Origin: Candidatus Lloydbacteria bacterium RIFCSPHIGHO2_02_FULL_50_18
GTDB lineage: Bacteria > Patescibacteriota > Minisyncoccia > Phycocordibacterales > UBA6899
Direction of reading: 5' to 3'
Length of the DNA: 64,000 bases
NCBI GenBank assembly: GCA_001821395.1
Contig: MHLM01000014.1
Location: 174,381 to 238,380, forward strand
Below are positions 5,520 to 63,702 of this stretch, in pieces (position 1 is the first letter of the stretch; the number at the start of each line of letters is the position of its first letter). The notes under the pieces were generated by a model. It saw only the letters and a list, made by a program, of their open reading frames with translations, did no database searches and had not been told where the DNA came from. A program made the position numbers and the translations under genes.

Positions 5520-5945
5520 CTACTTCCGTGCGAAGTGCTTTGTCTCATGGTACGTATCGTAATCGGCGGTCAGCTCTTCGCCTGCTTTCACGTCGCGCAT
5601 CGTGATGAAGGTTTCACCCTTGTCGAGGGTCGTCATGTTCGGCTTTTTTGAGTGATTGAGAAAATAGTTTTTTGTCAGCGCATCAATTCCGTAGTCCGGT
5701 ACGAAATAAACACCATCTTGCAGTGCGCAAAAATCGCGCACGAGTTCCTTTGCTTCCTCCGGCGCGTCAAATCGATCAAGGTCGCACTTGGGGATCTTGA
5801 GTACGTCGCCGCAAGGGTCCGCATTTTTGAAGGGGTCTGTTCCTTTAGGAATCATGCGAATGGCAACCACTCCGACACCGTGCTTGGTGATCCCGAGCCG
5901 GCAATACACATCACGGAGCGCAGTGAGGAACGACTTTTTATTCAT
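5520..5945 (-). CDS. SET domain protein (putative protein-lysine methyltransferase)
   Basis: 'GVGVVAIRMIPKGT' N-SET start, 'YFLNHSKKPNM' (NHSCxPN-like) and 'GEELTADY' (ELTxDY) are SET-domain signatures. Start set at the internal Met. Confidence 0.65.
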   Translation of the reverse strand: MNKKSFLTALRDVYCRLGITKHGVGVVAIRMIPKGTDPFKNADPCGDVLKIPKCDLDRFDAPEEAKELVRDFCALQDGVYFVPDYGIDALTKNYFLNHSKKPNMTTLDKGETFITMRDVKAGEELTADYDTYHETKHFARK

Positions 5946-6001
5946 GAGATAGAGTATACCGTAATTGAGAAAAGAGAGAACAGACATGATACAATCTTTT
6001 T

Positions 6002-6238
6002 ATGTACGAGCCATCAAAACATCCGAACAATCCGTTGCACGGAAAAACGCTGCAGATGGTACTTGAGTATCTCCTTGAACAGTACGGCTGGGAGGAACTG
6101 GGAAAACGCATCAGTATCAAGTGCTTTATGTTGAATCCGAGTATCAAATCGAGTCTGACATTCTTGCGCAAGACCCCATGGGCACGGGAAAAAGTTGAAG
6201 GACTCTATTTGGAGACGGTTAGCAGGAATTATCAATGA
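6002..6238 (+). CDS. DUF2132 (VF530-like) small conserved protein
   Basis: 78 aa. '[31 protein letters not shown]...[13 protein letters not shown]' matches the DUF2132 family as I recall it. Confidence 0.55.
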
Positions 6239-6292
6239 TCCTCCTGCGGCGTTTGTGCACGGTGCTTGCATAAATAAAAAAAGTAGGAAAGA

Positions 6293-6622
6293 ATGGAGCA
6301 TATGTCAAAGAACCCAGGTGAATCGGTACCCGAGGAAGTCCCCAAAGCAAAGCGTGATATGACGAGTAAGCTCGATATTCTTAATACGCAGATCAATGGA
6401 CAACTCACTGAGGGGAACCCTGATGCGGAGCTTGATGTTGAAGATTGCGTCAGAGCGGCGGAAGATATGCTCGATCTCCTCGAGGCTGAAAACGCTGAGG
6501 GTCGCAAACCTTATAAGGATGATGTTGATGCGATCTTGAAGAAACTGAATACCGCGATCGCTATTTCCAACGAACCCTACGCGCGTGAATTGCGCAAGAG
6601 GCTTTTGATGCGATTTGGCTAG
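6293..6622 (+). CDS. hypothetical acidic protein upstream of sufB
   Basis: 109 aa, Asp/Glu-rich, no recognisable family. Confidence 0.4.
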   Translation: MEHMSKNPGESVPEEVPKAKRDMTSKLDILNTQINGQLTEGNPDAELDVEDCVRAAEDMLDLLEAENAEGRKPYKDDVDAILKKLNTAIAISNEPYARELRKRLLMRFG

Positions 6623-6770
6623 CAAGAATGATGACGATATTGAGGGGGATGTCCCTTTTAGTCTGCCGTCATTTTTCATTGGCGGTTGCCAGGCCACGAT
6701 GTCGCAACCCACTTTTCGGGGTGATTTCGGTTGCAAAATTACATTAAATCCGTATACTGTCAAGCACAAT

Positions 6771-8135
6771 ATGCCTAAAACAAATGCGGCAAAGAACAAT
6801 ACACTGAGCGATGTCGGACCGACGGAGGCGCTTGTTCGGCAGATATCCGCGACAAAAAAAGAGCCCGATTGGATGCTCGAGCTGCGTCTTCGCGCTCTTG
6901 CGCTATGGCGTGAGACAGCGATGCCGAACTGGGGACCTGATCTTTCCGGGCTCGACCTCGACGGGATGACCTACTATGCGGATCCGAACGTGAAAGAGAC
7001 TGACGACTGGAAAGAACTGCCGAAAGAGATCACCGATACATTCGAAAAATTGGGTATCCCGAAAGCGGAGCGGGATTACTTGGGAGGGGTTGGTGCACAA
7101 TTCGACTCAGGAATCGTTTACCATCGTATCCAAGACTCGCTCGCAAAGAAGGGGGTGATTTTTGAGAACATGGATGTCGCACTACAAAAGTATCCCGAAA
7201 TGGTGAAGGAGCATTTTATGACGAAGTGTGTTCCGATCAATGACCACAAGTTCATCATGCTTCACGCTGCCGTTTGGAGCGGTGGGACATTCATCTATGT
7301 GCCGAAGGGCGTGTCAGTCGAGCTTCCGCTCCAAGCATATTTTCGCATGAACAAAGCGCGCTCGGCGCAGTTTGAGCATACGCTCATCATCGCCGACGAA
7401 GGTTCCGAGATCACGTATATCGAGGGGTGTTCCGCGCCGCAATACACCGAGTCGTCACTCCATGCCGGTTGTGTAGAGCTATGGGTGAAGAAGAATGCGA
7501 AGATCAAATACATCAGCGTCGAGAACTGGTCCAAGAACACCTATAATTTGAATACAAAAAAAGCGCTCGTATTCGAGCGGGGACTTGTGGAGTGGGTGAA
7601 CGGAAATATGGGTTCGCGTGCGACAATGCTCTATCCCTCATCGGTCCTATTGGAACGCGGTGCGCGCTGTGAATCGCTCGGCATCGTGATGGCCAATGCG
7701 GGGCAGGTGCAAGACACGGGGTCGAAGGCGACACACGTTGGGCCCGAGACGGTTTCCGTCATTCGTTCGAAATCAGTTTCGAAGGGTGGGGGAGTGTCCA
7801 ATTATCGAGGAATTGTAAAAATTTTACCCGGTGCGACGGACGCACAGTCGAGCGTCTCATGTGATGCGCTCATCCTGGACGATCTTTCTATTTCAAACAC
7901 CTATCCGTCGATGAAAAACCAGAACGAAACCGCCGACCTTTCTCATGAAGCGCGTGTTGGACGTATTGGTGAAGAGGAAGTATTTTATTTACGCTCTCGC
8001 GGTTATTCGGAAGATGAAGCCCTCCGCCTCATCGTCGGGGGGTTCATGGAGCCGATCGTCAAAGCCCTTCCGCTCGAATATGCGGTAGAACTCAATAAAT
8101 TAATAGAATTAGAAATGGATAACAGTGTCGGATAA
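6771..8135 (+). CDS. sufB: Fe-S cluster assembly protein SufB
   Basis: Strong SufB similarity from '...EPDWMLELRLRALALW...' through the C-terminus. Start uncertain: the ORF track begins at a TTG (6615); in-frame ATGs are at 6699 and 6771. 6771 was chosen by alignment with typical SufB N-termini. Confidence 0.85.
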   Translation: MPKTNAAKNNTLSDVGPTEALVRQISATKKEPDWMLELRLRALALWRETAMPNWGPDLSGLDLDGMTYYADPNVKETDDWKELPKEITDTFEKLGIPKAERDYLGGVGAQFDSGIVYHRIQDSLAKKGVIFENMDVALQKYPEMVKEHFMTKCVPINDHKFIMLHAAVWSGGTFIYVPKGVSVELPLQAYFRMNKARSAQFEHTLIIADEGSEITYIEGCSAPQYTESSLHAGCVELWVKKNAKIKYISVENWSKNTYNLNTKKALVFERGLVEWVNGNMGSRATMLYPSSVLLERGARCESLGIVMANAGQVQDTGSKATHVGPETVSVIRSKSVSKGGGVSNYRGIVKILPGATDAQSSVSCDALILDDLSISNTYPSMKNQNETADLSHEARVGRIGEEEVFYLRSRGYSEDEALRLIVGGFMEPIVKALPLEYAVELNKLIELEMDNSVG

Positions 8136-16537: not shown

Positions 16538-16572
16538 TAAAAAATCTCCGCGATCGCGGAGATATTTTAATT
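16538..16572. terminator. bidirectional terminator
   Basis: Perfect palindrome atctccgcg-atc-gcggagat, flanked by A-runs and T-runs on both strands. Confidence 0.6.
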
Positions 16573-18677: not shown

Positions 18678-20318
18678 ATGAGCACGAAAAAAACTGATGC
18701 TCCGCACACTGATGCGAAGCCTGAGTCAAGTGGTCATGGTTTTTGCCCGAAGTGTGGGAATGGCTGGCTCGTAAAGGACGGTCAGACCACGAACACTGGT
18801 AGTGAAAAACAGCGCTACCGATGCAGTGCATGTGCGCATAAGACAACTGCACCTTCCGCAGAACATCCTGCCGACGTAGTGACGATGCGCAGTAGTTTGC
18901 CGACGGCAAAACGCTACATCATCACCGCTGCACAAAATGCGACGCCAATTCATAGGCCGACGTGGCTATCACTTCTTTGTGCGGCAAAGTATTACGATGC
19001 CGAACTCGTTGTGATCCCCGGTCGGTATAAGAATCCGACCAGTCAGTGGACGCAAAACAATAAGGACCATGAATGGTGGGATGAGGCGGTTGTGCCATAT
19101 TTGTGCAACGGATGGATCGCGCTCAATGACCGACTGTTGATCCTTGGTGACGTGAAGGTACAGTGGGCGGCACGTCAGCCGCTTGTTGGACTGGACGCAC
19201 TCACCAAAGACAAGAGCGGCATTGTTGGCCACGGCTCTCGCGGAATGCGATCCGTTGCAACTCCGCAACACAAGCATCCCAAGATCATGATGACGACGGG
19301 AGCATGTACGGTGCGCAATTACACCGATACGAAGCAAGGCAAGCTCGGAAAGTTCGCTCACTGCCTCGGTGCTTTGATCGTTGAAGTGGACATCGATGAT
19401 GTATTTCACATCCGTCAGTTGAATGCGACCAAGCAGGGGAGTTTCATTGATCTTGATATGGAATTCACTCCCGAAGGAGCCCGTCCCGCGAAGCCCGCCC
19501 TGTCGATCTCGATGGGTGATATTCACCAGCGATGGATCTTACCTGATGTGGTCAAGGCAACCTTTACTGCACCGGATAGTCTGGTGAAGATGATCAATCC
19601 GCGTTATCTCTTTTGGCATGACACGGTTGATTTTCATTCGCGCAACCATCATCATCAAGATGATTGGATCACCAAATTCGCAAAGTGGAAATATGGGATC
19701 GAGTGTGTGCGCACTGAGGTTGAGGATGCGATACGTTTTGTGAATAAGCACACGACGCAAGGGCGCAAGTCGGTTGTCGTATCGAGCAATCATGATCGTG
19801 CGATCGCGCGGTGGTTGAAGGATGCTGATTTCCGAAATGATCCGGTGAATGCGCAGTTCTATCTCGAATGTGCGTATCGCGCAACGGAGAGTGCGCGACT
19901 GACCGAGGGCGGCGTCGCGTTTGATGACCCCTATGTGTCCTATGCACAAATGTTTGCGAAACCAAACGTGCAGTTCTTAAAGCCCGGGGAAAGCAAGGTG
20001 CTTGCTCAGGTCGAGTATGGATTCCACGGTGACATTGGTCCCAATGGTTCGCGCGGGACGACCAAGAATCTCTCCAAGCTTGGAGTGAAGGTCACGAAGG
20101 GGCACAGCCACACGGCCGAGATCATCGACGGATGCTACAGTGCCGGCAAATCGACCGGCATGCTCGAGTATGAGCATGGCGGACCGAGTAGCCACACCAA
20201 CTCCCACGTTGTGCAGTATGCCAACGGTAAGCGAGCAATTATCATCATCATCAATGGACGGTATTGCTTGAAGCGTCCAAAGAGGGTAATGGTGAAATTA
20301 TCTACGAAGCCTGTTTGA
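18678..20318 (+). CDS. zinc-ribbon / calcineurin-like metallophosphoesterase fusion protein
   Basis: 546 aa. N-terminal 'CPKCGNG...RYRCSACAHK' is a transposase-type (IS1/IS1595-like) Zn ribbon. The C-terminal roughly 270 aa carry ordered MPE motifs: 'GDIH', 'HDTVDFH', 'SNHD' (GNHD), 'GFHGD', 'GHSH' (GHxH). Strong RBS AAAGGAG. Confidence 0.6.
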   Translation: MSTKKTDAPHTDAKPESSGHGFCPKCGNGWLVKDGQTTNTGSEKQRYRCSACAHKTTAPSAEHPADVVTMRSSLPTAKRYIITAAQNATPIHRPTWLSLLCAAKYYDAELVVIPGRYKNPTSQWTQNNKDHEWWDEAVVPYLCNGWIALNDRLLILGDVKVQWAARQPLVGLDALTKDKSGIVGHGSRGMRSVATPQHKHPKIMMTTGACTVRNYTDTKQGKLGKFAHCLGALIVEVDIDDVFHIRQLNATKQGSFIDLDMEFTPEGARPAKPALSISMGDIHQRWILPDVVKATFTAPDSLVKMINPRYLFWHDTVDFHSRNHHHQDDWITKFAKWKYGIECVRTEVEDAIRFVNKHTTQGRKSVVVSSNHDRAIARWLKDADFRNDPVNAQFYLECAYRATESARLTEGGVAFDDPYVSYAQMFAKPNVQFLKPGESKVLAQVEYGFHGDIGPNGSRGTTKNLSKLGVKVTKGHSHTAEIIDGCYSAGKSTGMLEYEHGGPSSHTNSHVVQYANGKRAIIIIINGRYCLKRPKRVMVKLSTKPV

Positions 20319-34137: not shown

Positions 34138-35382
34138 ATGTCTTCATTTTTTTACACAGCAAGATCAGCAAGTCGCGCCGTCGGTGCCAACCGGGTCCGT
34201 TCCGGTCTTACGGTCCTCGGTATCGTGATCGGTGTCACGTCGATCATCCTTATCGTCTCGATCGGTGAGGGTGCGCAGTCGCTCATCCTGGGGCAAATTC
34301 AAGGCTTGGGAGCTGAGACCATCGTGATACGCCCGGGGAGAAAGCCGTCCGGTCCGACGGATATGGCGCAGACATTATTTGCGGACTCCATCAAGCAGCG
34401 AGAGGTTGACGCATTGAAACGTAAGGAAAACGTACCCGACTATGTCTCCTCAGCACCGCTGCTCATGGTGTCGGATTCAGTGACCTACGGTTCCAACATT
34501 GAGCATCCTACGATCTACGGTTGGTCTGCAGAGTTCATGGTAAGCATGATAAAAGCAAAGATAAGAGTCGGAACTATTTTTGATGAGGAGGATATAAAAC
34601 AGGAAGCGGCGGTTGCGGTGCTTGGGAGTCAGATTTCCGATGATCTGTTCGCGGGTGATGATCCTATCGGGAAGTCTATTCGCATTGGGACGAAAAATTT
34701 TCGCGTTGTCGCAGTGCTTCAAGGGGGTGGGGGAGGGCTTTTGAACACAGACAAGATGGTGGTGATCCCGTACTCTACTGCGCTTACGTACCTCTCGTCA
34801 GGGAAACATTACAATGAGGTCATGTTGAAGGTCTCTTCGCCGGAAGCTGTGGCGCGTTCCGTTGAGGACATCAAAGCGACGCTTCGGGAACTGCACAGCA
34901 TTACCGATCCTGCGAAAGATGATTTTTATGTCGAGACACAGCAGGCGGCGATAGATCAGATCGGTACCATACTTTCGGTGCTCACTGCATTTCTTTCCGC
35001 GGTGGTCGCGATATCGCTCGTCGTCGGCGGCATCGGCGTGATGAATGTCATGCTCGTATCGGTCACCGAGCGTACAAAAGAGATTGGTCTGCGAAAGGCG
35101 CTCGGTGCGACCAATAGTGATATTTTGACGCAATTCTTGCTCGAGGCGGTGCTCCTCACTATGGTGGGAGGTGCGATCGGCATTGTCCTCGGGGTCCTGT
35201 TCGGTTATGGCGCATCTATTGCCTTATCGCAAAATCTTAATGTCGATTGGGCGTTCGCATTCCCATGGAGAGCGGCGCTCATCGGTCTTGGTGTTTCCGG
35301 CGGCGTGGGTATCGTCTTTGGGATCTATCCTGCACGGCAGGCTTCACAGAAGAGTCCGATCGAGGCGCTCCGTTACGAGTAA
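34138..35382 (+). CDS. ABC transporter permease (FtsX/MacB-like)
   Basis: 414 aa with an N-terminal TM, a periplasmic MacB_PCD-like domain and C-terminal 4-TM FtsX domain. Confidence 0.85.
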   Translation: MSSFFYTARSASRAVGANRVRSGLTVLGIVIGVTSIILIVSIGEGAQSLILGQIQGLGAETIVIRPGRKPSGPTDMAQTLFADSIKQREVDALKRKENVPDYVSSAPLLMVSDSVTYGSNIEHPTIYGWSAEFMVSMIKAKIRVGTIFDEEDIKQEAAVAVLGSQISDDLFAGDDPIGKSIRIGTKNFRVVAVLQGGGGGLLNTDKMVVIPYSTALTYLSSGKHYNEVMLKVSSPEAVARSVEDIKATLRELHSITDPAKDDFYVETQQAAIDQIGTILSVLTAFLSAVVAISLVVGGIGVMNVMLVSVTERTKEIGLRKALGATNSDILTQFLLEAVLLTMVGGAIGIVLGVLFGYGASIALSQNLNVDWAFAFPWRAALIGLGVSGGVGIVFGIYPARQASQKSPIEALRYE

Positions 35383-35392
35383 GTCCCGCTCG

Positions 35393-35522
35393 GGTTTTCT
35401 TCTTTTGAAAGGCACACAGTCGGCCCCTCCTGCGGGGGCCGCTGTCACTCTCGGCCAATTGCCCCATCAGAATGGGGACCAAGCCAATTGTCCTCCGAGA
35501 GGCCTTTCAAAAGAAGAAAACC
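35393..35522. repeat. 130-nt element with perfect 21-bp terminal inverted repeats (MITE-like or structured RNA)
   Basis: ggttttcttcttttgaaaggc (35393-35413) and its exact reverse complement (35502-35522). The interior has three GC hairpins (ggcccc/ggggcc; cccca/tgggg; ctcgg/ccgag). 'ctcg' flanks both ends. Confidence 0.7.
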
Positions 35523-35765
35523 CTCGCCTCAGAGGAGCGGCGTTTGAGTTTGGTGCCCGCAGGTGGAGAAGAAACACTTGGCAGAATAGCTAGTTAGTGC
35601 GAGTATGTTTAGTAACTCGTGACCGAGTTCTCGGGAGGAAACGAGCGAAATTAGAATACGCAAAACATGAATATAGTGTATTTATCCCCATTCTCAGAGA
35701 CTTGGGTTGCAAAGGGCTTGCAGGCTGAGTATTTTCAACTCCTAAACGAGTTTAAAAAATAAAAT

Positions 35766-36125
35766 ATGAATATAAATATAAAAGCATTACATTTTTTGGG
35801 ATTACCGATTAAAAGAGAAATCTATACAAAAGCAATTTGCTCACTCTTCGGAATACTCATTTTATTTTTTGTTGTACTGGTCGTCGTGCCTTCGGTGGTT
35901 TGGCAGGCAGTACCATATTTGCTTTGGGCAATTATAATTATGTATGTTTTCTATATCGGAATTGCTCTCATTGTCTCTTTTTATCTCATAAGTCGAAGAC
36001 TTAAAACCTTGGGATATTCCACGCTGTGGATGATACTGATGTTCTTTCCAATCTTTTTTGTTTTTGTGGTGCTCGGTCTTATGGCACCAAGTGATGAAAA
36101 AATAGTTTACAAAATTTCAGCCTAG
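35766..36125 (+). CDS. DUF805-family small inner-membrane protein
   Basis: 119 aa. 'ISRRLKTLGYSTLWMIL' resembles the DUF805 'RRLHDxGxSGWW' motif. AT-rich coding region. Confidence 0.55.
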   Translation: MNINIKALHFLGLPIKREIYTKAICSLFGILILFFVVLVVVPSVVWQAVPYLLWAIIIMYVFYIGIALIVSFYLISRRLKTLGYSTLWMILMFFPIFFVFVVLGLMAPSDEKIVYKISA

Positions 36126-36166
36126 TTTGGGGCAATCACACTGACCCCAGTGGACCAAAGTTGGGA

Positions 36167-36838
36167 ATGTGGATTATTGCATTATTTGGAGGAAACAAAA
36201 TCCTCACCCATATGAAATCAAAGAAGAAGCCCGTAATAGAGCACAAAAGAAAGATACGAAACATAAGTGACTATGTTTATGACTGCCTCAACCGCCTGCG
36301 TGACCACGCTGACCTCATTTTATATCTTGGTAAACACAAGGACGACTTTGCCGGGGGTACACCAAAACAAAGCCTCTCTATAATTATTTCAATGATCGAC
36401 GTCTATTCAAGGGATGCCATTGTTATTTTCGGCACAATTTTTGATAAGAATAGGCAGACATCATCACTTTATACGATGGTTGACCACATAAAAGATGAGA
36501 AGAAGCGGAAGCGTTATCAGAAGAGGCTAGATAATATAAAAACATCTATAAATCAAATAGTCCGTGCCAGAGGAAATCAGGTTGGTCATTTCAATACAAA
36601 ACTGAATATCCACGACAACCACGACAATGGCTTTATTCATATCAACGGTGTTTTTCAGGTGGACCCACGCTTTACAAAAAAGATAGCAAATAGAATAGAG
36701 CGATTTTACTGGGATATTAGAGAAGAGCTTGGGGTTGAAGGAACTTTTGTTTTTCACAAAGGAGAACCAACCGCAAAGTCATTTGCCAGATTGGTCGGCA
36801 AGGCACCCAAGCGCTTGAGTGGTGGTATAAAAACTTAA
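36167..36838 (+). CDS. hypothetical protein, possible HEPN-like (Rx4-6H 'RGNQVGH')
   Basis: Start ambiguous (TTG 36161, ATG 36167 or ATG 36212). Low-GC. Helical, Lys-rich. Confidence 0.4.
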   Translation: MWIIALFGGNKILTHMKSKKKPVIEHKRKIRNISDYVYDCLNRLRDHADLILYLGKHKDDFAGGTPKQSLSIIISMIDVYSRDAIVIFGTIFDKNRQTSSLYTMVDHIKDEKKRKRYQKRLDNIKTSINQIVRARGNQVGHFNTKLNIHDNHDNGFIHINGVFQVDPRFTKKIANRIERFYWDIREELGVEGTFVFHKGEPTAKSFARLVGKAPKRLSGGIKT

Positions 36839-37015
36839 ACCTTGATACCCAATGTAGTGGGGTAGGGTGTGGGAATATAGATTGTCGCATCATTTAATCG
36901 TTCAAACACAGTTCTAACGTCCTCTACGACGCGACGGCTGGTCTTGGGCGAGTAAATAGACAGACGATATGCAAATTGCTAGGGTGGAGGCAGTTGTTCA
37001 ATACAAGGAGTTTTT

Positions 37016-37789
37016 ATGAGGCCATATATTGGTATTTGCGACTTTACCGCACCGGAACAAGCGCATCGCCTGCTCCAGTTGATCCCTCACGGATTTTCTC
37101 ATGACCTTATGGTCGGCGTGATGATGAGCTATAAAACGCTCAATAATCTTCCGACAAAATGGGCAAGGGTGTTTCCTGCGAAAAAGAATATTCGATCGAT
37201 CTTCGTCGATGATCCGCGCGTCTTGAATACCATTCATTATGCCGATTATGCCACAGGGGTTGATGCCGATCGACAGCTCGCGTATACGCTGGCCAAGGTG
37301 GAGATCTACGGCGGAGCGTGTCTTGGGGCGATCCAGCTCGATATGATCTGGCCGGATCCGGATGAGCTCAAGAAGTTTCGCGAGCACTGTAATATCCCCA
37401 TCATCCTGCAGGTTGGTGCGAATGCGATGCGCGAATGCGGCGATGACCCCATTGCAACCTGTGAGCGATTGAAGACGTATGGCACTACGATCAATGCCGT
37501 ACTTTTTGATAAAAGCATGGGTCGCGGGGTGGGGATGGATGCCGCGCTCTTGGCGAAGTATGCGGGAGTGCTTTCGTTCGACTGCCCGCATCTTGCACCC
37601 GCAGTGGCCGGGGGGCTTGGTCCGTCATCAATGGACCTCGTGGCACCGCTCATTCGAGCGTTTCCCGATCTTTCGATCGACGCACAGGGGCGGCTGCGTA
37701 AGAGCGGCAACATGAAAGACCCGATCGATTGGTCGATGGCGGAAGATTATTTCACGCAAGCGGTGGCACTGTTTTCCAAACAACCGTAA
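37016..37789 (+). CDS. TIM-barrel protein, phosphoribosylanthranilate isomerase (TrpF)-like
   Basis: 257 aa. 'GICDFT', 'IQLDM', 'VAGGLGPSS' resemble PRAI motifs. Good RBS (AAGGAG) and a downstream terminator. The overlapping minus-strand ORF was rejected. Confidence 0.5.
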   Translation: MRPYIGICDFTAPEQAHRLLQLIPHGFSHDLMVGVMMSYKTLNNLPTKWARVFPAKKNIRSIFVDDPRVLNTIHYADYATGVDADRQLAYTLAKVEIYGGACLGAIQLDMIWPDPDELKKFREHCNIPIILQVGANAMRECGDDPIATCERLKTYGTTINAVLFDKSMGRGVGMDAALLAKYAGVLSFDCPHLAPAVAGGLGPSSMDLVAPLIRAFPDLSIDAQGRLRKSGNMKDPIDWSMAEDYFTQAVALFSKQP

Positions 37790-37797
37790 TGACCCGA

Positions 37798-37828
37798 GGC
37801 CCCGCAGAAGCGGGGCCTTTCTTTTTTG
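37798..37828 (+). terminator. intrinsic terminator
   Basis: Stem ggccccgc/gcggggcc with loop agaa, then tttcttttttg. Confidence 0.7.
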
Positions 37829-37885
37829 AATAATGATCGATGAATGGTATACTCTTTCCGTATTATTGACGGTAATTTTTTAATC

Positions 37886-38599
37886 ATGAATCAAACAACG
37901 TGGATCATTGGGGGTGGAGTTGTCATCGTGGCAATCGCCGCATTGCTCTATTTATCAAGCGGAAGCGGTACACCAAAGACTGAGCCGACAACCATTCCCG
38001 CAGCGGAAATAACGGTAGACGATAAACCTATCGCAACCTCAACTTCGGTTGAAGCCCCAACGGATATTACTCGAACATCACAAGGAAATATGGAACAAAA
38101 AACAAATGAATCAAGCAGTGCGACACTGCACACAAGCATGGGCGACATCACGCTTAAATTTTACGCGAGTGATGCGCCAAAGACGGTCGAAAACTTTCTC
38201 AAACTTGCACAGTCGGGTTTTTATGACGGCGTGAAGTTTCACCGCGTGATTAAAGGATTCATGATCCAGACCGGTGACCCGCTTTCAAAGGATGACACGA
38301 TGATGTCACGATGGGGCACCGGTGGACCGGGGTACCAGTTTGCCGATGAAATCGTGCCCGCGAGTGCGCTCTATCAGAAAGGGTACAAGCATGGTGTTCT
38401 TGCCATGGCGAACTCCGGAGCAAATACGAACGGAAGCCAGTTCTTCATTATGGCTGCCGATTATCCGCTTCCACCGCTCTACACGATCTTCGGGGAGGTG
38501 ACGAGTGGGCTACCCGTTGTTGATGCGATAGACGCGGTGCCGACGTCACAGGACCGACCGCTTACTTCCGTGGTTATCAAGTCAGTCGAAGTCAAATAG
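37886..38599 (+). CDS. peptidyl-prolyl cis-trans isomerase, cyclophilin type, membrane-anchored
   Basis: N-terminal TM and linker, then 'FHRVIKGFMIQTGDP', 'GTGGPGYQFADE', 'LAMANSGANTNGSQFFI'. Confidence 0.85.
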   Translation: MNQTTWIIGGGVVIVAIAALLYLSSGSGTPKTEPTTIPAAEITVDDKPIATSTSVEAPTDITRTSQGNMEQKTNESSSATLHTSMGDITLKFYASDAPKTVENFLKLAQSGFYDGVKFHRVIKGFMIQTGDPLSKDDTMMSRWGTGGPGYQFADEIVPASALYQKGYKHGVLAMANSGANTNGSQFFIMAADYPLPPLYTIFGEVTSGLPVVDAIDAVPTSQDRPLTSVVIKSVEVK

Positions 38600-38729
38600 T
38601 TGGATTCCACGCAAATGGTGAACTTCTTTGTTGCGGGGCCCCTATGATTCGGTCACCATATAAGAATATGCCTTCCTCGTCACTTTCCCCGCGTCTCGAA
38701 TTTCATCCATTTGTATGAAATCCAGTCGA

Positions 38730-38761
38730 TAAAAAAAGACCCTGCAAAGGGTCTTTTTTTA
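38730..38761. terminator. bidirectional terminator
   Basis: Stem agaccct/agggtct with GCAA loop, A-run before and T-run after. Confidence 0.65.
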
Positions 38762-38768
38762 TATGATG

Positions 38769-38957
38769 TTATCGTTTCTTTGAAATGAGAAAGTGTGCCG
38801 CAAAATAGAGCAAGAGTCCCGGGAGTATCCCCGTAAGGACCATAAGGACGATGTAGCCGACACGGAGTATGCCGGGGCTGACTTCCATCCATTCACCTAA
38901 ACCTCCGAATATGCCGCTGGCAACCTTGGAGTCATCACTTTTATGCAGTTTTTTCAT
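38769..38957 (-). CDS. PspC-domain small membrane protein
   Basis: 'KVASGIFGGLGEWMEVSPGILRVGYIVL' matches PspC domain consensus. Confidence 0.7.
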   Translation of the reverse strand: MKKLHKSDDSKVASGIFGGLGEWMEVSPGILRVGYIVLMVLTGILPGLLLYFAAHFLISKKR

Positions 38958-38980
38958 ATGAGCTATTGTATCGCAGACGA

Positions 38981-39814
38981 TCAGCGAAATGCAAACTTCT
39001 TTTGCAGGCTTTTGAGAAAATAATTATCTTCAAACTCCGCAAAAGTGATGATATGTTTTGACTTCGTGACCTCGACGCGGTCTTTTTCGTGAAGAGGGAA
39101 GAGGTCCATATCATCGGCGGTAAGCACCGCATCAATGGGTTCATTGGTTTGTGTGATTGCGAGAATTCCTCTTTTGCGCACTTCGGTGATGTCGATGTAC
39201 ACGGTCTTTGTGTTTTTGAGGACAAGAGACGGTGTCGGAATATTGTGATCAAGCAACTCCGTGACAATCATGCAGTGCATGTCCGGAGTGACGATCGGCC
39301 CGTGCGCCGAGAGATTGTATGCGGTAGAACCGGTCGGAGTCGCGATGATCACCCCCGAGCCGTGTACATATTGGAGCGGATGCCCATCAACGGATATCGT
39401 CATTCTGATCGTACCCATGATGCCTTGCGCGGTGACTTCATTCAGGCAGTCGGTGGTGTGGACGAGGGCTCCGCCGCGAAATACTTTTGCGGTAAGCATC
39501 ATGCGATGTGTCGTGACGAACGATCCTGAAAGGAGGGCGTCAACTGCACCGATGAATTGATCCGGTCTTCGAGCGGATGCTAAAAAACCGACATGACCAA
39601 GATTAAGACCGAGGAATATCGGTGCGTTTTTTTGAAAGTATCGTGCGCTTTCCAGTATCGTTCCGTCACCGCCGAGGGTGATCACAAAATTGGGTTTTTC
39701 CGTTACGATCAGAACACGCGGATGGTGTGCGGCGATGTGTGCGATGATCTTCTTTTTCCAGTTCAGTGCGCGCCGGTTGTCGGCTCGGCAAAATAGTGCG
39801 ACTCGTGTTTTCAT
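38981..39814 (-). CDS. nadK: NAD(+) kinase
   Basis: 'FVITLGGDGTILESARYF' GGDG motif, 'DGHPLQYVHGSGVIIATPTGSTAY' NADK motif. Confidence 0.85.
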   Translation of the reverse strand: MKTRVALFCRADNRRALNWKKKIIAHIAAHHPRVLIVTEKPNFVITLGGDGTILESARYFQKNAPIFLGLNLGHVGFLASARRPDQFIGAVDALLSGSFVTTHRMMLTAKVFRGGALVHTTDCLNEVTAQGIMGTIRMTISVDGHPLQYVHGSGVIIATPTGSTAYNLSAHGPIVTPDMHCMIVTELLDHNIPTPSLVLKNTKTVYIDITEVRKRGILAITQTNEPIDAVLTADDMDLFPLHEKDRVEVTKSKHIITFAEFEDNYFLKSLQKKFAFR

Positions 39815-46052: not shown

Positions 46053-46124
46053 GTCCTTGTCGTTCAATGGATAGGATATCTCCCTCCGAAGGAGATGATG
46101 CTGGTTCGATTCCAGCCAAGGGCA
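46053..46124 (+). tRNA. tRNA-Arg (anticodon CCG)
   Basis: Manual cloverleaf: acceptor gtccttg/caagggc (one G-U), D-arm gttc-aatggata-ggat, anticodon stem tctcc/ggaga with loop cTCCGaa (U33, CCG, A37), T-arm gctgg-ttcgatt-ccagc, discriminator A. CCA not encoded. Confidence 0.85.
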
Positions 46125-63006: not shown

Positions 63007-63702
63007 ATGGACCTCCGCCCACACATCGCCCTCTCGAGTCTATCCCATGCATACGTCATTGAAGGTGCTCGTGCATCGGGGCTTTCCGCACTTCGTGACC
63101 TCATGGAGTCTTTTGGTATCGCGATCAAAGCAAATCCCGACTACCACGAGTATCAATACGAGACATTGCTCATCGAGCATGCACGAGAACTTCGCCGCGA
63201 GCAGGGGATGCGCGGAGCCGAAGGCGCAAAGAAGATATTCGTCGTTGCATTCAATGCCATCCACCATGAGTCTCAGAATGCGCTCCTGAAGACCCTTGAA
63301 GAGCCGACCGACAACACACATTTTTTCTTTCTCGTGCGCACGAGTGAGATCCTCCTTCCGACCGTGCGTTCACGCATGCAAGTAGTAAGAGGAGAAGAAT
63401 CGAAAGGGGATGCGCTTCCGCTCGCCGCAGAATTTTTGAAAAGCAGCATCTCCGCCCGCATGAAAATGATCGAACCGATGACCAAAGCAAAGACTGACGA
63501 TAAGCCGAGGGCAAAAGAAGAAGCGCGCCTCTTTGTCGAAGCACTCGAGCCGCTGCTGTATGAAAAGATCACTCAGGAAGAGCCGCGCATTACCCGTGCG
63601 CTCGAGGATGTGCTCATTGCAAAACGTGAGCTCTCAGGTCGTTCGCCCTCAGTGAAGCTGCTGCTTGAGCATTTGGTGCTTACGGTGCCACGTGGTAGCT
63701 AG
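63007..63702 (+). CDS. holB: DNA polymerase III delta' subunit-like clamp-loader protein
   Basis: 'QNALLKTLEEP' and 'ILLPTVRSRMQ' (SRC-like) are clamp-loader box motifs. There is no intact Walker A, consistent with delta-prime. Confidence 0.65.
   Translation: MDLRPHIALSSLSHAYVIEGARASGLSALRDLMESFGIAIKANPDYHEYQYETLLIEHARELRREQGMRGAEGAKKIFVVAFNAIHHESQNALLKTLEEPTDNTHFFFLVRTSEILLPTVRSRMQVVRGEESKGDALPLAAEFLKSSISARMKMIEPMTKAKTDDKPRAKEEARLFVEALEPLLYEKITQEEPRITRALEDVLIAKRELSGRSPSVKLLLEHLVLTVPRGS

Follow-up and report, generated by a model that had tools for sequence, protein, structure and literature searches.

REP and BIME palindromes form stable, co-transcribed hairpins in the 3' UTR, past the stop codon, where they protect the mRNA from 3'-5' decay; REPs, which are associated with a RAYT transposase, are 20-40 nt long and present in many copies. 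Integron attC sites are imperfect palindromes of 57-141 nt, conserved in structure, which act as folded single strands beside small variable genes. The element analyzed here, a self-complementary module of 132 bases at positions 35392-35523 of a 64-kb window (the whole stretch of DNA under analysis), lies directly 3' of a macB-like ABC-transporter gene. It shares with REP/BIME sequences the character of an intergenic palindrome just past a stop codon, but differs from them in its length of 132 nt, its branching, and its single-copy state. From attC it departs by having no R-box cores, no integrase and no site per cassette, for which an assignment to attC was rejected, and by persisting where the cassette is absent.

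With the CREE/NEMIS and ERIC/IRU families, as outlined in the cited accounts, the element shares a length of ~100-150 bp, the absence of coding capacity, terminal inverted repeats of 20-odd bp, and a position beside or within transcription units (PMC2649163; PMC2229807). According to the same accounts, transcripts of these families form long hairpins bound by RNase III, altering the expression of adjacent genes (PMC2649163; review PMC2229807), and Correia elements of Neisseria are described as binding RNase III and as being cleaved or protected by it (PMC2649163). CREE and ERIC families comprise tens to hundreds of copies per genome with conserved ends and a TA duplication, whereas of the present element one copy was seen, flanked by CTCG; unlike theirs, its ends are not conserved between species, and its interior forms a three-way junction whose loops are conserved. 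As in RNA motifs of the Rfam type, compensatory changes occur in the helices, while the nucleotides of loops and junction are retained, as is a fixed genomic context; atypical of such motifs are the perfect closing helix of 22 bp, the near absence of G-U pairs, and the equal foldability of both strands. A further likeness is to quasipalindromes, inverted repeats which, in the account cited, are maintained or perfected by copying one arm from the other (PMC7202029). Template switching is, however, a mutational mechanism and not a class of element, and leaves the conserved loops, the helix lengths and the position unexplained.

The macB-like gene (34138-35382, plus strand) encodes an ABC transporter permease of 414 aa with the Pfam domains MacB_PCD and FtsX, and its TAA stop codon is located 3 nt before the outermost helix of the structure, P0. 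It is the last gene of an adaptor/ATPase/permease operon, with ABC_tran and RND-adaptor genes upstream (Pfam). The genes of adaptor, ABC ATPase and MacB-type permease are followed, in this order, by the element, two small low-GC ORFs, a conserved gene for a 257-aa protein, and PPIase, beyond which PspC and NAD kinase are encoded on the opposite strand. The permease is identical to a protein of a Candidatus Lloydbacteria MAG (GCA_001818945.1, contig MHLI01000022.1), where it is annotated as hypothetical, and the same protein was found on 14 further contigs from several samples. The 257-aa gene (37016-37789, plus strand), which belongs to no Pfam or NCBIfam family, directly follows macB in relatives that are without the element. 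Homologues of its product are spread across Patescibacteria (687 at E <= 1e-20).

The module is closed by the helix P1, formed by a 5' arm of 22 nt (35392-35413, plus strand, GGGTTTTCTTCTTTTGAAAGGC) with 100% complementarity to the 3' arm (35502-35523, 22 nt, plus strand), the two being separated by 88 nt. A preliminary description of this DNA had reported a perfect 21-bp terminal inverted repeat, which is present and extends by one further base; it had also correctly placed the start of the 21-nt arm 10 nt past the macB-like stop (ORF end 35382) and its partner 109 nt further on. In the fold of the window sequence, P1 closes a three-way junction with the two arms P2 and P3, all on the plus strand. 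P2 (35416-35445) is a hairpin of 11 bp with a one-base bulge and a 7-nt loop, TCCTGCG (35428-35434). P3 (35448-35501) is a composite arm in which three helices are stacked; in the window these pair 35448-54/35495-501, 35456-61/35485-90 and 35462-67/35472-77, with ACCAAGC (35478-84) as an internal loop. Among species, P3 varies in length and in its interior. The interior had been described as multi-branched with three separate hairpins, of which the branching stands, but in the window it is made up of two arms, P2 and the composite P3. Outside P1, the folds pair CCGCTC (P0 5' strand, 35386-35391, plus strand) with GAGCGG (P0 3' strand, 35535-35540, plus strand). The latter belongs to a conserved 3' part (35524-35553, plus strand), in which a one-sided internal loop of 11 nt, TCGCCTCAGAG, is followed by the P0 3' strand and the U-rich tail CGTTTGAGTTTGG. 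The direct repeat CTCG, noted before outside both ends as a possible target-site duplication, was located at 35389-35392 (left copy) and 35523-35526 (right copy), each copy sharing one base with the 22-nt inverted repeat.

Folded as RNA, a stretch of 146 nt yielded -81.4 kcal/mol on the plus strand (z = -10.5, with 0/200 shuffles as low) and -83.2 kcal/mol on the minus strand; folded as DNA, the window element yielded -50 kcal/mol (z = -9.9). All stem pairs of the window element (52/52) are perfect. At up to 3 mismatches the P1 arm was found in the window only at its own two sites, against 0.01 expected, and the 22-nt arm pair is the longest spaced inverted repeat of the 64 kb. Taken together, arm rarity, repeat length and the extreme fold energy exclude a chance origin.

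Orthologous loci were collected by way of MacB homologues and homologues of the 257-aa protein. Two further complete elements were obtained: in L026 (GCA_043719805.1; MacB 85% and 257-aa protein 64% identical to those of the window), where the element spans 6922-7088, and in L047 (257-aa protein 82% identical), where the 257-aa gene follows the element directly, with no islet of low GC between them. Two loci carry part of it: L022 (MacB 89% identical) contains the left arm only, after which the contig ends, and L050 (257-aa protein 71% identical) starts inside P3 and contains the right arm and the tail, likewise without the islet. Among more distant relatives, L025 and L048 have an empty site, with 60-90 nt between macB and the 257-aa gene, and in L023, L024, L028 and L029 another gene is located directly after macB. 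The homologues on record included no further MacB grouping with the element-bearing clade, and the recorded homologues of the 257-aa protein included no close relative of L022 that could supply its right arm. In L026, the macB orthologue was called as two overlapping ORFs (5675-6918; 114 aa and 305 aa), as might result from a frameshift, pseudogene formation or a sequencing error beside the element in GCA_043719805.1.

The perfect terminal inverted repeats, the 4-bp direct repeat, the size of ~130 bp without coding capacity, and the empty sites found in L025 and L048 when relatives were inspected, a difference at the between-species level, are what would be expected of an active MITE, mobilized in trans by a transposase recognizing the 21-22-bp ends. 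A MITE candidate was one of the two readings of the preliminary description, which had proposed a search for additional copies. In the 64-kb window, no second copy was found by arm, by 11-mers, by the conserved motifs or by spaced inverted repeats, and in the window together with 335 kb of related loci (399 kb) no further copy was found by sequence, motif or covariance model; within these sequences, the element is single-copy with the same flanks in relatives, the outcome that the preliminary description had named as speaking against a MITE. No transposase was present among the called genes within 10 kb. A 20-mer of the arm, searched against genome_contigs and metagenome_contigs, matched 15 times, each time singly and in an unrelated organism, without a partner arm or similarity in the interior; as these collections do not contain the source locus, the scans are uninformative on other copies in the source genome, and the arm 20-mer, being the least conserved part of the element, is a poor probe. 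The element had no blastn match in phages and plasmids, and of 17 matches of the conserved-motif patterns in viral contigs, 0 were confirmed by the covariance model, with 0 for the tail. A six-frame pseudo-protein of the element, searched against the protein database for spurious ORFs on other copies, returned nothing, which is uninformative. The comparison of relatives also opposes an active MITE. Orthologues at the identical site have unrelated arms and conserved interior motifs, and MITE families show the reverse; low arm identity with retained complementarity is the opposite of what transposase-recognized ends should display. We regard an active MITE as highly improbable. The terminal inverted repeats, CTCG, the empty sites and a small terminator-like hairpin restored on excision speak for a transposon-like origin, but with a single copy found and no sequence conservation in the arms, the element does not behave as a member of a MITE family.

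Six contigs from different samples and assemblers (L003, L004, L005, L006, L022, L027) end inside the element, and L050 starts inside it. Independent assemblies that break here would accord with an active MITE, as they also break at repeats, but the break points lie at differing internal positions beside strong hairpins, and the end of L006 consists of degenerate, homopolymer-like sequence of low quality. This suggests loss of coverage caused by the hairpins, and probably not a repeat. The practical effect is that short-read assemblies of these organisms are broken at the element locus.

In the window, L026 and L047, the same architecture occurs at the same site, with 2-3 nt between the stop codon and P0. 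In 3/3 complete elements, P1 is exactly 22 bp long and without indels, P2 is 11 bp long, and P3 starts with CUCGG, followed by an interior that is variable (52-68 nt); CCAAGC of P3 is confined to the window and L026. P0 has 6 bp in all three, CCGCUC/GAGCGG in the window and with G-U pairs in L026 and L047, and each of the three has an internal loop of 11 nt, UCGCNUNAGAG, confined to the 3' side. The P2 loop, UCCWGCG, reads UCCUGCG in the window and L026 (7/7) and UCCAGCG in L047 (6/7). The tail GGCGUU(U)G is common to the three complete elements, and the equivalent of the 3' part 35524-35553 is conserved in L026, L047 and L050; the conserved parts of the element are CCGCTCGGG, CTCCTGCGG and CCCTCGCNTNAGAGGAGNGGCGTT. 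The CTCG repeat flanks the element in the window and L026, and as CTCA/CTCG in L047. Most of the conservation falls on P0, the P2 loop, the base of P3 and the tail, and the stems have drifted: the sequence of the element ends is GGGTTTTCT ... AGAAAACCC in the window, compared to GGGTGATAT ... ATATCTCCC in L026, and P1 arms of orthologous elements are 34-50% identical, the arms of each still being complementary.

Between the window and L026, 19/43 predicted pairs were changed on both sides and are still paired, and a covariance model built from these two alone retrieved L047 with 69 bits (E = 6e-15). When the three complete sequences are aligned under guidance of the model, standard pairs occupy 96.9% of 129 pair cells, compared to 48-65% when the partners are slid by 1-3 columns; both-side changes are found in 24/43 pairs, and 0/500 shuffles reach any of the measures. 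These counts refer to three complete sequences only, in an alignment fitted to the covariance model. As a measure of neutral divergence, four-fold sites of macB are 37-54% identical within the element-bearing lineages and 22-45% identical to outgroups, so that saturation of neutral sites within the clade is heavy but incomplete, with ~0.8 substitutions per site. Leaving the P3 interior aside, unpaired positions are 43-67% identical, only modestly above the four-fold sites (37-54%). Within the reach of the data, the element is single-copy and vertically inherited, and it is conserved in shape, not in sequence.

The left arm of L022 (L022:7249-7281; GGGTTTATCAACTTTTGAAAGGC, 23 nt) is closely similar to the window arm, to which the L026 arm is unrelated. 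Four-fold-site identity of macB is about equal among the lineages of the window, L022 and L026 (47-49%), and the likeness of the L022 arm despite this equal divergence indicates either uneven turnover of the arms or exchange of the element between lineages.

The preliminary description had offered a highly structured RNA as its other reading, and the strong covariation supports this; the restriction of the stems to Watson-Crick pairs, however, would also permit an explanation at the level of DNA. Over the three sequences, 111/117 pairs of P0, P1 and P2 are Watson-Crick pairs and three are G-U pairs, all in P0; in the 99 pair cells of P1 and P2 there are 0 G-U pairs, and P1 of L047 has two A-C mismatches. 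Of the 129 cells of the model, 125 are standard on the plus strand vs 118 on the minus strand, with 9 G-U vs 2 A-C cells, a weak preference in the pair counts for an RNA of the plus strand. By minimum free energy, the two strands are about equal in the window and L026, and in L047 the minus strand is favored. With Watson-Crick-only stems, drift at about the synonymous rate and strand-symmetric folding, maintenance at the RNA level and maintenance at the DNA level are not separable.

Template-switch mutation at imperfect inverted repeats, in which one arm is copied from the other, is an established mechanism in the account cited (PMC7202029). Arm-to-arm templated correction of a DNA palindrome fits the Watson-Crick-only, neutrally drifting stems at least as well as RNA-level selection does. 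In its extreme form, this reading takes the element as a functionless, self-perpetuating DNA palindrome, an old foldback insertion whose arms are corrected by template switching or hairpin-templated repair under no selection. It would account for the complete lack of G-U pairs in P1 and P2 and the perfect stems of the window, for the equal folding of both strands, and for a P3 interior that is free in length and sequence yet palindromic; near-neutral evolution of the arms is to be expected if mutations are reverted or copied across, and is unusually fast for selected RNA stems. It accounts poorly for helix lengths held strictly at 22 and 11 bp in three sequences with an indel-free P1, for a P2 loop that is 7/7 and 6/7 identical beside conserved junction and tail motifs, and for G-U pairs that all fall on the plus strand, in P0, at the closure of the P2 loop and at the base of P3. 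A neutral palindrome of 130 bp would moreover be expected to be lost from a reduced CPR genome, but this one persists in five lineages with four-fold sites ~50% diverged. As far as sequence comparison can tell, helices of constant length, loops that are conserved and an unchanging position speak for selection on shape, and we consider a palindrome devoid of function rather unlikely.

Covariation, conserved loop motifs and fixed helix lengths are also the pattern of a functional RNA, and could reflect a trans-acting or protein-binding ncRNA, released from the macB 3' UTR, with the P2 loop and junction bound by protein and the 22-bp stem serving as ruler or handle. Such an RNA would constitute a new family, as no known one matches: the Rfam scan suggested earlier, performed with the covariance models of Rfam 15 at E <= 10 over 35000-36000 and at gathering score over the window, returned no family for the element. 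Confinement to one small clade and one locus, tied to the macB stop codon, speaks against a role in trans, as do the lack of a conserved partner gene adjacent to the element and downstream genes that vary by lineage; Watson-Crick-only stems and strand symmetry are a problem here, too. We judge this explanation to be improbable.

Several more specific candidates were rejected. The segment CCCGCAGGTGG (35556-35566), 16-26 nt downstream of the P0 end, could pair at 10/11 positions with 35426-36, in the 5' strand and loop of P2, but a pseudoknot of the P2 loop with it has no equivalent in L026 and L047. A small ORF following the Shine-Dalgarno-like AGAGGAG would yield UUG-initiated peptides of 4-21 codons that are unrelated between species. 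On the minus strand, the loop that contains a hammerhead-like CUGAUGG is not conserved. A retron msr-msd was dismissed as there is no adjacent RT gene in the window or relatives, where no reverse transcriptase family occurred among the neighboring genes, and a Y-RNA-like reading as its defining features are missing.

Downstream of the element tail, a low-GC accessory islet (35600-36840, plus strand) contains ORFs of 119 aa (35766-36125) and 225 aa (36161-36838). That the element borders such an islet had been noted before and was confirmed, with a GC content of 0.36-0.42 over 35600-36800 and 0.50-0.58 around it. The islet is located between the tail and a conserved block of ~60 nt upstream of the 257-aa gene; this block (36950-37015) is kept in the window, L047 and L026, and weakly in L025. 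The 119-aa ORF has sub-threshold matches to DUF805 and ABC2_membrane_2, and the 225-aa ORF a weak match to HEPN_AbiU2 (E = 0.0055); neither search, PADLOC or NCBIfam, gave a convincing match for the islet ORFs. In L026, a single ORF of 95 aa (7292-7579) takes this place, and in L047 and L050 the islet is absent. Because these two loci carry the element without it, the islet, by this comparison of loci, is a separate, lineage-variable insertion outside the element.

The low-GC cargo that immediately follows the element in the window and, with different content, in L026, but is lacking in L047 and L050, might also be taken to indicate a folded-DNA recombination site, attC-like or for attachment, that directs the insertion of downstream accessory genes. 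Conserved structure with variable sequence and Watson-Crick-only stems, as in attC, would suit it, as would a same-species contig, L051, that ceases to match the window at 150 nt past the element on its downstream side. Against it, the ends are without RYYYAAC/GTTRRRY core sites, there is one element and not one per cassette, with no second structured site past the cargo ORFs, the genes called over 10 kb to each side included no integrase or recombinase, and the cargo-free lineages retain the element. The probability that the element is such a site is, in our assessment, very small.

L051, a contig from ENA, is 99.95% identical to the window over 35673-39458, and leftward of this continues into 139 nt of unrelated AT-rich sequence (L051:1-139). 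The difference is either a structural variant at the strain level or an assembly chimera.

Excision of the module together with one CTCG leaves, in each lineage, a hairpin of the form CCGCUC-loop-GAGCGG with a U-rich tail (-8.5 to -10.6 kcal/mol), and outgroups have comparable small hairpins shortly past the macB stop. The sequence after P0 (CGUUUGAGUUUGG, CGUUGGAUUUUUG or CGUUUGUGCUCGG) is U-rich without a clean U tract, and a consensus terminator scan made no call there. The empty sites in L025 and L048, the CTCG repeat and the hairpin left on excision fit a single insertion into the loop of a terminal hairpin; a 4-nt repeat is weak evidence by itself, and its copies in the window, L026 and L047 stem from one ancestral event. 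The element is probably a transcript-end structure derived from one old insertion and not an active jumping element. A foldback module of MITE-like origin would thus have entered the loop of the small hairpin ending a macB-type efflux operon, presumably in the ancestor shared by a small clade of Candidatus Lloydbacteria, and would since have been retained for shape, not sequence.

Tentatively, we favor a cis-acting RNA structure at the 3' end of the macB operon. Since the element starts 3 nt past the stop codon and the flanking genes are co-oriented, it would be transcribed by read-through from macB. The plus-strand RNA is predicted to fold into a three-way junction with a P0 of 6 bp, a P1 of 22 bp, a P2 of 11 bp with UCCWGCG loop, and a variable P3, by which the operon transcript would gain an extremely stable 3'-terminal structure, acting as a reinforced terminator or as a block to 3'-exonucleases. 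A perfect duplex of two turns is also the type of substrate used by double-strand-specific RNases, and could set the lifetime of the mRNA in a manner comparable to transcribed Correia elements. The plus strand as the functional one and the consequences for the mRNA are proposals within this favored reading.

No new kind of system is required by the data. It is doubtful, but conceivable, that a three-way junction with helices of exactly two turns (22 bp) and one turn (11 bp), whose stems keep to Watson-Crick pairs under neutral turnover of their sequence, represents an undescribed class of element in one Lloydbacteria clade. If so, the class would be either an RNA recognized by a protein or RNase, with duplex length as the ruler, or a nested palindrome which arm-to-arm templated conversion upholds and which an efflux operon has co-opted at its end; if the element is a relic insertion only, the finding is ordinary. 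CPR/Patescibacteria have small genomes and are not amenable to study in pure culture, and their non-coding elements and transcript-end signals are almost unknown. The locus provides a natural series of empty site, element alone, and element with differing accessory genes, in which a structure has been retained over ~0.8 substitutions per neutral site. For RNA motif discovery, it offers a test case of whether DNA-level palindrome correction can mimic compensatory changes in long perfect hairpins.

Elsewhere in the window, the sole match at Rfam gathering score is a tRNA gene (46053-46124). The octamer GCGATCGC occurs in 9 copies in the 64 kb, with ~1 expected, and one of these copies (16550-16557) lies within a 20-nt palindrome at 16538-16569. 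Other short palindromes are located at 20069-20088 and 63326-63349.
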